From contig CM097885.1 of NCBI GenBank assembly GCA_044892525.1, forward strand, positions 86,738,001-86,802,000: DNA of 64,000 bases. The letters run 5' to 3'. The position numbers and the translations under genes were made by a program. Source of the stretch: Schmidtea polychroa. Taxonomy: Eukaryota. Shown here piece after piece: positions 10,901 through 15,364 of the stretch; within the stretch, counting starts at the first letter, position 1; each line of letters starts with the position of its first letter. Below the pieces are notes generated by a model. The model searched no databases. It was not told the DNA's origin and was given only the letters and a program-made list of their open reading frames with translations.

Positions 10901-12604
10901 GCAAATAAGAATCTTGCTGACCAAACCTGAGCCACGAGTGTCATGTGGACATTCACCAATGTTTAGTACCCTCCCAGGAGATTCTTTTATTTCATTAATT
11001 TTATTCCTCAGTTTTTTAACATAATTTAAATAATTTTCATTTTCCACAAGAGTTGTGGGATTTAATAAATAATATTCATCAGTATTATAATCTATTATTA
11101 ACAGAATTTCACGATATTTAGGGGGTGCTACAATGGCAAATATGATTTGCGCCCTTGTTATATTTTCATAATTTAAAAACTGGTACAAGTACTGTGTGCA
11201 GTCATCAAGAATCGCAGTGCACATTGCAACATTTAGAAGCATATAGTTACTGGATAATTTTAAATTATTAAAATATTTTGTAATTATTTCGTCATTAATT
11301 GTAAAATTAATTAAATTTAAATTTTTGCAGATCTCATTAGTCATTTGTAGTTTAATGGAATTAAGATTTTCATTGATAATTTTGAAAGACGGATTATTAT
11401 TAAAAATGAGAACCTCAAGAAATTCAATAAACTTACATGCAAAAAAGTGAGGATCTTTGGAAGTAAAAGAAAGTAGACTCTTTCCATGATCATTTAGAAA
11501 GTTAACTTTACCATTAGAGATGAAAAATTTGTTGAGGTAATCAGTCATGTTTTCACTTATACCAATTAATCTCTCGTCAATGATACAATCTTGAAAATTG
11601 AAAATATAACTTTTTTTAATCAACGAAGAAAAAACATATAAGCACCAGTCCGAATTGTTTGGAATAACACCGATCACATGCTGAACATTAGAAAATTGTT
11701 TAAAAGTAACATTTTCTCTAATATATTCATCATTTTGAGCCATAATATTCAAAGTCAACTCATTGGACATGACAGTTACATTTTCTTTACTACCAAACCA
11801 TTCTTTTACAAGAGATGCGATACACGGACTTTGACCGGAAAGAAAAGCTCGACTTGAATGATTAATTTGCTTTTGCACTGGCATTTTAATATTTTTGATA
11901 GTAGGAATTTTCTTAACTCCATTTCGTTTAATTTCCTCCATAAACTTTGGTAGGCCACCCCCCGAAATTTTCGCGACACCATGAGGCTGGTCAATCTGAA
12001 ATTGATGAACTTTTTCTCTAATTTCCTCAATAAAATTGTTCGGAAAACATTTCCACTCTCCACTTATCATCATAGCATATGCACAGATGTAAGGTCCACA
12101 ATCGTAACTGTTATCTTGGTAAGTAAAGTTATTGTGTGGGTGAAAAGATACAGCAGCTTTGAGATCAAACAGATTATTAAGAGCCAGAGTGATTCTAGTA
12201 GCACTTGTCTTGTTAGTAAGATCATGTCGCTTTCGAAAGATTGGGTCAATAAAGTAGGATAACAAAGTGGTTTTACAATAAACAAAGAGTATCCAATGAG
12301 ATTTATTTATGTTGAGGGGACATAATATTATTTGCGCATTGTAGACTTTTTCTGGAATCGGAAAAATGTTCTCATTAAAATTAGTGCGCAGTATTTCAAC
12401 TATAAAGCATTTAAGTGGCGCAAATTCTGGGTCACTGATGTGATTTTCAAGGTAGTGGTCGATATCATCATCAGTGAACCAGAATTTTGGATCACGAACT
12501 ACATTTTGATAAGTTTTATTAATTAATGCCTTATTAATGTTTAATGTGCTGTCTGCATCAGTCTCCTTAGAGATTAAAGCAGATTCTGAGACTGATGCAG
12601 GCAC
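7965..12604 (-). pseudogene. E2 ORF2 (Ulp1-like protease, RT, CCHC, RLE) broken by a frameshift near 10890
   Basis: Two overlapping frames, 12604-10877 and 10904-7965. Motifs THW-like SHWIL, DCGP, SPGIDG, WRPIALL, DIKDAFGSV, QGCPIS, YADD, CRLC..H..SC, RHND, RIDL, DMK and KYESL are present. Alignment to family A suggests a short deletion after ICSFI. Confidence 0.9.
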
Positions 12605-12610
12605 GCATTT

Positions 12611-15364
12611 TCACTTAGTTTTAGGAGCATTTCTCCTTGTATTTTTGAAAGGTTGCTGCTCCATGACACTGTTATGAACGTTGTTGGTCACAATATCAGT
12701 TGAATCGCCCCCATCAATATCTACCGGGAATTTTATTTCAGGTGTCTCACCACCATTTCTCAGCGATGACTCAACAACTTCATGATCAGCAATGGAACAA
12801 GAAGGGTCTTCCAAATGATTTTCAAAGGATTCAGCAATACTGTCAACAATGGCTGAGTCAGGTGCATTGTCCATCTGACCAGTCATTTCCAAAGACGCGA
12901 TAGGTAAAATATAATCCAGTATTTTAGAGATCATAATGCTCATCTTACTGGTACATATTTTGGTGCAATTTCGTGGAATACGAAAATTAAACCGATTGTT
13001 GGTCAAGAAACGTTTTTTGTCTCTAACGATAAAGTATAGGAGTCGCTTTGCTCTCTCCGTGTCAGAATCATTTGATTCATTTTTAAATTCATTTATTTTA
13101 TTACTAATTTTATCAAGCGCACTTAACTGATCTATCTTTTGAGGTAAAGCAACATCTAGAGTGTCAAGGAAGTTGTTTATTTCAGAGATCGTTTTTGGAG
13201 AAATGATATTGTGTATAAGGTCAATCTCACGAGATAAATTCAGTTGACGGAGTCTTAAAAGTCTTTCCTGACAACTGGAATAATAGTAAGAAGAACAAGG
13301 AATCATTTTAATCATCTCTGGAGCCCAATTTTCAATGTTGTCACATCTTAATGCGTTGCAATTCTCAATATTCGTTATTGAGTGTATCAAAAAGCAATTG
13401 CGTAAATAGTTAAGTACGTATTCATCAAATGTGGCATTTGAAGTGTACTCCAGTGTACCTTTTAACTGTAAGTAGTTTAAGTGAAAGATTATATTAACCA
13501 ATTTTTCAGACGAATTCGATTGAGAAAGTAGAGATCGTAGTACATCGTTTTTCTCAGACATGCTAAGTAAGTTCAGTAGGCCAAGATTAAACATAATGTC
13601 TGACTGGCTCTCAAAATTCGAACCCCCGTCATCTCCAGCTCTACCAGATTTCACAAACTTACCCTCTACAAATGAAATTTGCTCAGGAAATCCTCTCTCC
13701 GATCTCAGAGTCTGAATGAGCTGGACCAACTTTTCAGGATTCTCTGCGATGTTTTCAGTGAAAAACAATTCAGCTAACTCAGGGAAAGATTTATAAAGAT
13801 CACGTACTTGTGAACGAGAAAGCTCAGCTGTCTCAGCATTGGAATTCAAACTATTAGGAGCATCACTTTCAAGTAAGTCTAACATGACAAAATCATCATC
13901 TTGATACTTGATCTGTGATTTTATCAGGTAGTCCGGGAGAATCCCTTGCTTTTTTATTAGGCTCAAAGCAGTGTTTATCTGTTCTCCCCGTAATTTAGCG
14001 TTCCCTATAGTTGATGTTTCTGCAAGTTTTGTAGATAGTACAAATAAAAATTTCTTAATTGCTAATGATGCTGGGATAAACTTTGTCGAACCACTGACGA
14101 CTGATATAATTTTAGAATTAATTAGAGATGTTTTTATTTTTTTAGTATTTAATTTCTTTTCTTTAAAAGTTTGTAAATTAATATTTACACATATATTATG
14201 GTTTCTATAAAATAAATTTAGAAAACCAGACAATTTTAAAGGATTTTCAGTTTGAGAAATTTTCGCGAGTTCAGAATTTATCAATTCAAATTTTTTAGGG
14301 GATTCCTTATATTTTAATAGTTTAACAAAATTAGGAAAAGCACTAATGAACTGATGTTTTTCGTTCTTATTCAGGGTTCTTACAAGTAAGTTACAGTTAT
14401 TTATTTTCGATTTTATTAAACTGTTTTCATTTTTTTGGTTCCCTTGATTATTTAAAAGCTTAGTGCTATCTTTAACTGGTAAAGGTTTATCAATCTTTAA
14501 ATTGTTAATATTTGAAGATTTTGATTTAATTAATTCAACCTTATTTTTAATAATGTTGTTATGGTTTAAGTCATTTGATTTAATTAAATTTAAATTTTCA
14601 TATTCAAATAAAGGTAATTTTGAAATATCTTTTTTAATTAAATCATTTTTAATATTTATTTCGAGATTAGAATCATCCACTTTCCAAGGAACCGAAACGA
14701 TGCGCTGTCCAGACGAAAAATCAGCATTTGAAGAATAATTGCCTTTTTTAATTAAATCATTTTGAATATTTATTTCAAGATTAGAGTACTCCTTATTCCA
14801 AGGACTTGAAACAATGCGCTGTACAGACGAAGAATCAGCATTTGAAGAATGATTGCCTTTTTTATTTAAATATAATTTTCCAGATTTACTAATTTCATCT
14901 TTGAAATCTTCATTACATAAATTATTATTTAAATTTTCTGATTTATTAAAAACAGTTTTAAATCTATCATTTAAAGAAAAAGTATCAGCGGTTTGGGAAT
15001 TTCTTTCATGATAAGTTAAAGCATTATTAATTTTAACTTTTCTTTCTCCAGTGGAATAACATGTCATTCTCAGATCATCTTTTTTTGACGTATTATAAGC
15101 TGAATTCTTAAAATTTATATGGGCGCTATCCAGATTCCCCTTATTAACATTATCATAAAAATTAACGTTTAAAAATTCAATTATTAAACTAAGTTTATTA
15201 GAAAACTTACGGAAATCTCTTTCTAGCCCATGAATTCTTCGAAACATATTTCCATCTTCAAATGAGTAAGCATCTTTACGTCCAGATCGTCCAAAATTCA
15301 TATTTCTTCTCATTTTAATGATAAAAAATTTCCTCCAATATCCACGTTTTTCAATTTCCTGCAA
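12611..15364 (-). CDS. E2 ORF1 (family B), ~900 aa
   Basis: Open frame; the track start is TTG and the first ATG is at 15313. The C-terminal half is clearly homologous to family A ORF1 (FLFVLST.L.ETS.IGN, LSRSQVRDLYKSFPE, QSDIMFNLGLLN). Confidence 0.85.
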   Translation of the reverse strand: MQEIEKRGYWRKFFIIKMRRNMNFGRSGRKDAYSFEDGNMFRRIHGLERDFRKFSNKLSLIIEFLNVNFYDNVNKGNLDSAHINFKNSAYNTSKKDDLRMTCYSTGERKVKINNALTYHERNSQTADTFSLNDRFKTVFNKSENLNNNLCNEDFKDEISKSGKLYLNKKGNHSSNADSSSVQRIVSSPWNKEYSNLEINIQNDLIKKGNYSSNADFSSGQRIVSVPWKVDDSNLEINIKNDLIKKDISKLPLFEYENLNLIKSNDLNHNNIIKNKVELIKSKSSNINNLKIDKPLPVKDSTKLLNNQGNQKNENSLIKSKINNCNLLVRTLNKNEKHQFISAFPNFVKLLKYKESPKKFELINSELAKISQTENPLKLSGFLNLFYRNHNICVNINLQTFKEKKLNTKKIKTSLINSKIISVVSGSTKFIPASLAIKKFLFVLSTKLAETSTIGNAKLRGEQINTALSLIKKQGILPDYLIKSQIKYQDDDFVMLDLLESDAPNSLNSNAETAELSRSQVRDLYKSFPELAELFFTENIAENPEKLVQLIQTLRSERGFPEQISFVEGKFVKSGRAGDDGGSNFESQSDIMFNLGLLNLLSMSEKNDVLRSLLSQSNSSEKLVNIIFHLNYLQLKGTLEYTSNATFDEYVLNYLRNCFLIHSITNIENCNALRCDNIENWAPEMIKMIPCSSYYYSSCQERLLRLRQLNLSREIDLIHNIISPKTISEINNFLDTLDVALPQKIDQLSALDKISNKINEFKNESNDSDTERAKRLLYFIVRDKKRFLTNNRFNFRIPRNCTKICTSKMSIMISKILDYILPIASLEMTGQMDNAPDSAIVDSIAESFENHLEDPSCSIADHEVVESSLRNGGETPEIKFPVDIDGGDSTDIVTNNVHNSVMEQQPFKNTRRNAPKTK
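14627..14865 (-). repeat. Two-copy 114 bp (38 aa) tandem repeat inside E2 ORF1
   Basis: KKGNHSSNADSSSVQRIVSSPWNKEYSNLEINIQNDLI followed by KKGNYSSNADFSSGQRIVSVPWKVDDSNLEINIKNDLI. Confidence 0.85.

Follow-up and report, generated by a model that had tools for sequence, protein, structure and literature searches.

Candidate stop-codon readthrough at a conserved UGA and stem-loop between the two open reading frames of 5S rRNA-targeted retrotransposons in Schmidtea polychroa

Introduction

How retrotransposons without long terminal repeats (non-LTR retrotransposons) translate their second open reading frame (ORF2) is a long-standing question, and it is raised again by a tandem array of such elements in Schmidtea polychroa. 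The stretch of DNA analysed here (the window; 64,000 nucleotides of contig CM097885.1, assembly GCA_044892525.1, positions 86,738,001 to 86,802,000 of the forward strand) holds in bases 1-43,900 a head-to-tail array of five ~8.3-kb non-LTR elements, E1 to E5, all on the minus strand and each with two long frames, ORF1 and ORF2. E2 belongs to a family designated B, and E1, E3, E4 and E5 to a family designated A. In all five copies ORF1 and ORF2 lie in one frame that is divided by a single UGA, a conserved stem-loop follows the UGA, and no conserved in-frame AUG is available to open ORF2. By what route, then, is ORF2 reached by the ribosome?

Readthrough of stop codons is already established in retroviruses, and is also used by some LTR elements. 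The routes to ORF2 described for non-LTR elements in the reviews covered are reinitiation, stop-start coupling, 2A skipping, and frameshifting (PMC5972666, PMC5009743). No report of readthrough for a non-LTR element was found in the literature covered; the description of R5 (Burke et al. 2003) and the Repbase entries lie outside that coverage and could already mention an in-frame stop. From sequence evidence we infer, with a probability of about 0.7, that the UGA is a site of programmed, structure-stimulated readthrough.

The junction in the window

The original prediction, made from the letters of the window, held that ORF1 and ORF2 are one frame split by a lone UGA with a stem-loop behind it, and this arrangement was recovered in five of five window copies, with the stops at the same positions (4277, 12611, 20939, 29262 and 37844). 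The parts of the junction are as follows.

12611..12613, minus strand: single in-frame UGA of E2, candidate readthrough codon
12605..12610, minus strand: 6-nucleotide spacer of E2; among the families described below, an Arg or Lys codon followed by a Cys, His or Tyr codon
12546..12604, minus strand: stem-loop of E2, in which a basal GUGC (12604-12601) pairs with GCAC (12549-12546), with a 3-nucleotide bulge on the 3′ side
12600-12588 with 12565-12553, minus strand: 13-bp upper stem of E2, closing a 22-nucleotide loop (12587-12566)
4212..4279, minus strand: same UGA and stem in E1 (family A)
20874..20941, minus strand: same UGA and stem in E3 (family A)
29197..29264, minus strand: same UGA and stem in E4 (family A)
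37779..37846, minus strand: same UGA and stem in E5 (family A)

The stem of E2 is as perfect as had been claimed (13 of 13 pairs at the predicted coordinates, with the 22-nucleotide loop and the GUGC/GCAC extension), and the remaining four copies, for which 10-12 pairs had been given, form 11, 12, 12 and 11 of the 13. The pattern TGA-N6-GTGCCTGCATC has five matches in the window, a number reached in none of 100 shuffles. The E2 segment is predicted to fold at -27 kcal/mol (z = -4.3; none of 200 shuffles as good), with z-scores of -2.6 to -4.2 for the other four copies. In an intact family B copy, just one of 1,509 75-nucleotide windows folds better, an unrelated one ~120 nucleotides further downstream. 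The junction stem has no Rfam family above gathering score.

A second strong hairpin lies at 12426-12483 of the window (minus strand), ~130-185 nucleotides after the UGA and over the start of the protease, and is found at the same place in family A. It is predicted at -21 to -26 kcal/mol in families A and B, and could be a second stimulator or a product of chance; among the further families introduced below, the same register is weak in C, E1, E2f and M and is not formed in D1 and D2.

A fixed stop codon across the genome and eight families

An in-frame stop between two long frames could have arisen as a nonsense mutation in dead copies that were then multiplied by tandem duplication, and all five window copies do carry some lesion: the ORF2 of E2, E4 and E5 is frameshifted, E1 is without the core of the reverse transcriptase (RT), and E3 ends early. 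Copies elsewhere in the genome have both frames open, including a family B copy (L217) with 983 and 1,555 codons from stop to stop and a family A copy (L218) with 932 and 1,538; ORF2 is open for 1,538 or 1,555 codons in most of the 150 best genome matches. Among 571 genome copies in which the downstream pattern is constant, a count that leaves out copies with two codon changes or an altered downstream pattern, the stop reads TGA in 569, CGA in one, TAA in one, and TG followed by C, G or T in none, so the in-frame UGA is, by this measure, not decay. The lone CGA copy was considered as a working ORF1-ORF2 fusion and rejected, the copy being a broken chimera.

Searches with more distant proteins added six further families (C, D1, D2, E1, E2f and M), of which C lies in tRNA-Asp arrays, D1 beside tRNA-Arg, and D2 beside tRNA-Met/Asn. 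TGA, six nucleotides and the same stem are kept in all eight families, and the spacer is never a stop in any of them. The UGA thus persists across families as well as in copies with both ORFs intact, and cross-family conservation refutes its origin as a mutation of dead copies. Loss of the in-frame relation in intact relatives had been named as a finding that would speak against readthrough; the relation is kept. The seven families with intact ORF2 are 53-80% identical, and their own ORF2 terminator is TAA in six of seven, yet the junction stop is TGA in seven of seven. The base after the stop is A in 33 of 33 distinct junction sequences, and the base before it (position -1) is A in six of seven families.

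Nucleotide-level constraint on the stem

The two arms of the stem encode VPAS and TDA, and across the seven families with intact ORF2 no other stretch of ORF2 has two or more adjacent columns with an invariant codon. Of the remaining columns in which the amino acid is invariant, the codon does not vary either in 2 of the 115 that are four-fold degenerate, 2 of the 125 six-fold ones and 26 of the 225 two-fold ones. Synonymous identity is 0.95 in the arms as compared with 0.47, a value matched by none of 200,000 random draws of nine columns, a test whose arm columns were picked after the sequences had been seen. The loop sequence diverges, nearly completely in family M, yet its length is constant, and the 3′ GCAC is retained while the encoded residue swaps between Ser and Cys. 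The stem is, on these comparisons, under nucleotide-level constraint.

Several observations weigh against readthrough or lessen the force of the evidence for it. The covariation analysis across related families that the original prediction had set as a check found no two-sided change: none of the 17 stem pairs changes on both sides across 12 sequences, because the arms are invariant, with 11 of the 17 pairs never varying, and the covariation score of the stem is no better than that of shuffles. As no compensatory change is seen, it is complementarity and conservation that speak for the pairing, and the upper five pairs of the stem are often broken. The constant spacer length in all families means that the shared frame was inherited once, and the families do not amount to eight independent tests. 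In two chimeras (L122 and L216) ORF1 comes from one family and ORF2 from another, the crossover lying at the stem or downstream of it, and inter-family recombination near the junction could homogenise the stem. The base after the UGA is A and not the C of the type II readthrough motif (UGA-CUA/CGG), which occurs in a sister clade only. Finally, there are two more distant relatives (~50% identical), P0001 and P0002, known from protein sequence; the gene calls of both begin with MPAS at the place of the GUG described below, with the same 20-residue spacing to DA(D/E)ST, and a true AUG at their start would favour initiation. The called Met seems likely to be the gene caller's rendering of GTG. 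A Val to Asp change in P0002, together with Thr to Ser, would fit one A-U swap in the stem.

How ORF2 could be entered

The stop and the protease are joined by a linker of variable length, the Trp of the protease lying at codon 31, 33, 35, 38, 42 or 44 after the stop depending on the family, always in frame and with no stop between. A linker that varies in length but always stays in frame implies that it is translated, and hence that translation begins upstream of it. No in-frame AUG is conserved before the protease, the first in-frame Met ranging from codon 37 to codon 317 among families; as had been noted originally, there is none before the protease His in the window copies, where the first Met lies after it (in E3 at codon 152 after the stop, or 150 if the GUG is taken as codon 1, and in E2 at codon 180). 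A start upstream of the linker leaves, as judged from these frames, readthrough or initiation at the GUG that forms the third codon of ORF2. Two features of E2 bear on the choice.

12602..12604, minus strand: in-frame GUG, codon 3 of ORF2 and rival start codon, paired in the base of the stem
12567..12608, minus strand: AUG-initiated ORF of 13 codons in the -1 frame, which never enters the ORF2 frame

Initiation at GUG is the main rival to readthrough, and an unlikely one. Under this explanation ribosomes would terminate at the UGA and then reinitiate, or initiate internally in the manner of R2, at the in-frame GUG six nucleotides downstream with the aid of the structure, as a non-AUG analogue of the coupling used by SART1, which itself needs structure downstream of its junction (PMC5972666). 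The GUG is invariant in eight of eight families, the called starts of P0001 and P0002 would coincide with it, and the frame-preserving linker is explained equally well. Its invariance is also explained by pairing with CAC, however, and its context is poor in all eight families, with a pyrimidine at -3, C at +4, and the codon itself forming the base of the stem; a non-AUG start normally calls for a purine at -3 and G at +4, together with a hairpin ~14 nucleotides downstream (PMC3542737). GUG initiation leaves the constancy of the UGA stop unexplained, and the evidence from P0001 and P0002 weakens if their Met is a rendering of GTG.

Less probable is an explanation in which the stem serves ribonucleoprotein (RNP) assembly or recognition by the RT, and ORF2 is reached either by weak leakage that is not programmed or by some unrecognised route, for example reinitiation at a -1-frame AUG and a subsequent frameshift. 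The original prediction had pointed to a nearby out-of-frame AUG that opens 13-15 codons, and these lengths were found (13 in family B, 15 in family A). Such an AUG overlaps or just follows the stop in seven of seven families examined, opening 13-18 codons, and the A after the UGA is not a leaky context. The -1-frame ORFs differ in position and length among families, however, and none enters the ORF2 frame; the AUGA overlap follows from the A at -1, which is itself a readthrough feature; and the fixed distance of six nucleotides from stop to stem points to a role linked to the ribosome.

A separate ORF2 mRNA made by cis-splicing or by spliced-leader (SL) trans-splicing would supply an AUG of its own, given that flatworm SLs end in an AUG able to start translation and use UUNYAG acceptors (PMC12582326). 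No in-frame YAG acceptor is conserved before the protease, where the one in-frame YAG is confined to family A. Ahead of the protease Trp a single in-frame AG is shared, a GAG at +48 in six of eight families (absent in E2f and M), which is not a YAG, and the CAGs conserved at +19 and +58 would leave an SL AUG in the wrong frame. We consider splicing quite improbable. Contigs of a run designated X1, whose status as RNA is a guess, are not counted as evidence here: one (12571-13467) crosses the UGA with 14 differences, none of them at 12611-12613, and no joint falls at either junction among the 15 of 34 joints listed, contigs being apt to drop rare forms. One X1 joint runs from 12667 to 16497.

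Two further explanations recode the UGA itself. In the first, the stem would recruit ADAR, and A-to-I editing would convert UGA to UGI, which is read as Trp. ADARs disfavour an A with a 5′ G, as in UGA, and the UGA lies outside the predicted duplex. Editing of stop codons is a known alternative to readthrough (PMC3542737), and the UGA of the sister clade described below sits in a Trp column, but the chance of editing at this junction appears slim. In the second, selenocysteine would be inserted at UGA with the help of a stem resembling the selenocysteine redefinition element (SRE) of SEPN1. The strict use of UGA, the 6-nucleotide spacer (the same as in the SEPN1 element) and the similar stem length would fit, but the codon falls in a low-complexity linker, and an Rfam scan (the 3′ untranslated stretch to E = 10, the window at gathering score) returned no selenocysteine insertion sequence (SECIS), though a divergent one could be missed. 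This we hold to be most improbable.

In-frame UGA codons in a distant sister clade

A search of the genome with the Ulp1 profile recovered other protease-RT elements, which a long RT branch (>2 changes per site) separates from the clade of the window; the tree had 16 rows, comprising this genome's families together with P0001 and P0002, was rooted at its midpoint, and carries a long-branch warning. Five sister-clade families, sampled at one or a few loci each and with many copies broken, have an in-frame UGA followed by CUA (four families) or CUC (one). This UGA aligns with the Trp column of the window protease, which corresponds to the Trp of the WLND motif of yeast Ulp1; two other distant elements have Tyr or Arg there. 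One further distant family has UGA-CAA-CCA upstream of the protease, a match to the CARYYA motif. At the window junction, in contrast, the UGA precedes the Trp by 30-43 codons and the signal is a stem with A after the stop. The sister clade supports readthrough too, in so far as sequence context can indicate it.

Predicted stems 8-11 nucleotides after the UGA occur in two distant families (L211:4267-4299 and L202:3616-3677, both on the plus strand), with z-scores of -2.9 and -0.9. In another, family J (L204:3953-3968, plus strand), which has Tyr at the Trp column, an AUGA stop-start overlap lies upstream of an ORF for a zinc finger, protease and RT, and may reflect coupling or decay. In a copy designated G2 (L201, minus strand) the frame end runs into sequence matching the 28S target of LIN9_SM printed in PMC4640811, so that a named family may carry UGA-CUA.

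The proposed programmed readthrough and its likenesses

The fixed UGA, the stem and spacer in eight families, the frame-preserving linker and the UGA-CUA of the sister clade together support the readthrough proposed originally. Most ribosomes would stop at the UGA and release the ORF1 protein. With UGA in the A site, a stem starting six nucleotides downstream would sit at the mRNA entry channel and slow termination, such that a minority of ribosomes might insert a near-cognate residue and continue into a polyprotein of ORF1, protease, RT and endonuclease, ~2,470-2,520 amino acids in length. A high ratio of ORF1 to ORF2 product would in this way be set from one mRNA, and the polyprotein may then cut itself after a Gly-Gly behind the protease.

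Readthrough in alphaviruses, furo- and tobraviruses, the gag-pol of murine leukemia virus (MuLV), Drosophila kelch and SEPN1 is alike in having an in-frame stop, a stem 6-12 nucleotides downstream, and A at -1 (PMC3159437, PMC3542737), and further in the tandem blocks of synonymous conservation and the polymerase downstream. The stem spacers are 8-12 nucleotides in alphaviruses, 8 in MuLV and 6 in SEPN1, and A at -1 is common (PMC3159437). The junction described here differs from the viral, kelch and SEPN1 cases in reading UGA-A(G/A)(A/G) rather than UGA-CUA/CGG or UAG-G, in its compact 22-nucleotide loop, in the lack of compensatory changes, and in its host, an element of the long interspersed nuclear element (LINE) type. 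SART1 and LINE-1 share with the window elements a bicistronic non-LTR RNA, and SART1 depends on structure downstream of its junction, but both start ORF2 at an AUG in the ORF2 frame (PMC5972666), whereas the nearby AUGs here are out of frame in seven of seven families.

Proteins of the presumed fusion

The coding features of E2 are as follows.

12614..15313, minus strand: ORF1 from first ATG to junction, ~900 amino acids, a protein of no known family
10877..12610, minus strand: 5′ part of ORF2, protease and two further Ulp1-fold repeats without catalytic His/Cys
11990..12481 (ends approximate), minus strand: Ulp1/C48 protease domain, with Trp44, His105, Asp122, Gln165 and Cys171
11954..11962, minus strand: Gly-Gly-Gly (residues 217-219) in a low-confidence linker, candidate self-cleavage site
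7965..10940, minus strand: 3′ part of ORF2, with RT, CCHC zinc knuckle and restriction-like endonuclease (RLE); this copy is frameshifted near 10877-10940

Sixteen homologues of ORF1 were found, all unnamed proteins of at most 960 amino acids, and searches for longer homologues returned no fused ORF1-ORF2 relatives, which is weak evidence. ORF1 is without a Pfam match. Its predicted model is of good overall confidence (mean predicted local distance difference test score, pLDDT, 82.5), and structure comparison of the family A homologue gave nothing clear (best Z 6.6 across 68 residues, root-mean-square deviation 3.4), which does not show that the fold is new. With neither a Pfam nor a fold match, ORF1 is not demonstrably Gag-like. 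The description of the product as a gag-pol-like readthrough polyprotein therefore holds for the logic of readthrough, and not for homology of ORF1 with Gag, to which it has no detectable likeness.

In ORF2, Pfam matches to Peptidase_C48 (Ulp1) above cut-off, RVT_1 and the zf-RVT zinc knuckle, with the RLE, give the order Ulp1-like cysteine protease, RT, CCHC knuckle, RLE; the best solved relatives are R2 retrotransposon proteins, a second matching stretch spanning the knuckle and endonuclease. The first 600 residues appear, from a predicted model (mean pLDDT 62), to hold three Ulp1-type folds. The first repeat matches Ulp1/SENP and has invariant H, D, Q and C. The second and third (window 10877-11830, minus strand; Z 10.6 and up to 14.5) are without the catalytic His and Cys, and are possibly pseudo-proteases that bind SUMO or a substrate. 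A weak OrfX2 match (E 0.003, AT-biased composition) was set aside in favour of the Ulp1 matches.

Gly217-Gly218 lies between the first and second Ulp1 repeats, is invariant in nine of nine proteins, and is the first Gly-Gly in each. Proteases of the CE clan, including its viral members, cleave after Gly-Gly-type motifs, and some of the viral enzymes process polyproteins in this way. By analogy, self-cleavage of the polyprotein after Gly-Gly, freeing the RT-endonuclease part, would be a reasonable inference, more speculative than readthrough itself. The pS273R protease of African swine fever virus, the adenovirus protease and I7L of poxviruses share the fold of the Ulp1-like repeats (Z ~9, predicted model), as NeSL-1 and Utopia-1_TSP share a Ulp1-like protease with the window elements, but the cleavage of a retrotransposon's own protein by this fold is a candidate only. 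We can offer tentatively, with the odds somewhat against it, a wider picture in which a LINE-type lineage would follow a retrovirus-like expression plan without retroviral parts: a UGA readthrough polyprotein cut after Gly-Gly by a SUMO-type protease, in two deeply separated clades that place readthrough at different positions and use three signals (a 3′ stem-loop, UGA-CUA, and UGA-CARYYA).

Searches for DNA of distant relatives in viral and prokaryotic collections gave nothing, and a metagenome match (L219) was rejected as an unrelated GC-rich Ulp1-like gene.

Target site and lineage

The 3′ end of the element joins the 3′ part of a 5S rRNA gene at ~nucleotide 22 of the gene, at the same point in five of five window sites, and the target site is evident from comparison with empty 5S units elsewhere in the genome. 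For E2 the interrupted gene is the following.

7272..7369, minus strand: 3′ part of the interrupted 5S rRNA gene, joined to the 3′ end of E2 at ~5S nucleotide 22

The insertion junctions lie at 7369, 15723, 24007, 32609 and 41068 of the window (minus strand). At the 5′ ends of the elements no 5′ part of the 5S gene is present, and family A starts with a diverged copy of the 5S spacer. Related families (L125, L139, L143, L138 and L205) lie in tRNA-Asp, tRNA-Arg(ACG), tRNA-Met/Asn and other tRNA arrays, which implies that the clade has switched among RNA polymerase III targets.

R5 has two ORFs, as the window elements do. R5 and the planarian LIN families (LIN9, 15, 24, 25 and 26_SM) are likewise of the RLE type and insert specifically into RNA genes present in many copies (Kojima and Jurka 2015, PMC4640811). 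The 3′ ends of the window elements are similar by eye, and not identical, to those of LIN15_SM and LIN25_SM printed there; the target differs, being 5S rRNA here and 28S, tRNA-Arg and tRNA-Glu for LIN families (PMC4640811). Within the parts of PMC4640811 and PMC5035012 covered, neither a 5S target nor a mode of ORF2 translation was found for the LIN families. The window elements probably belong to the R5/LIN lineage of the NeSL clade or lie close to it.

Two other features of the window stand apart from these subjects. An AT-rich minisatellite with periods of 21-72 nucleotides lies outside the array at 61281-61640, and at 22998-23048 (plus strand, antisense to ORF1) contigs of runs X1 and X6 skip 49 nucleotides with GT..AG ends, which may represent a spliced antisense RNA or another locus.

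Significance

If true, readthrough would add to the routes by which non-LTR retrotransposons reach ORF2 one that is known from viruses and retroviruses, and the junction cassette would be an unusual stimulator, acting with A after the UGA. The conserved Gly-Gly provides a first concrete hypothesis for the role of the Ulp1-like protease in elements of the NeSL clade, and with the families described here the targets of site-specific RLE elements come to include 5S rRNA and additional tRNA arrays.

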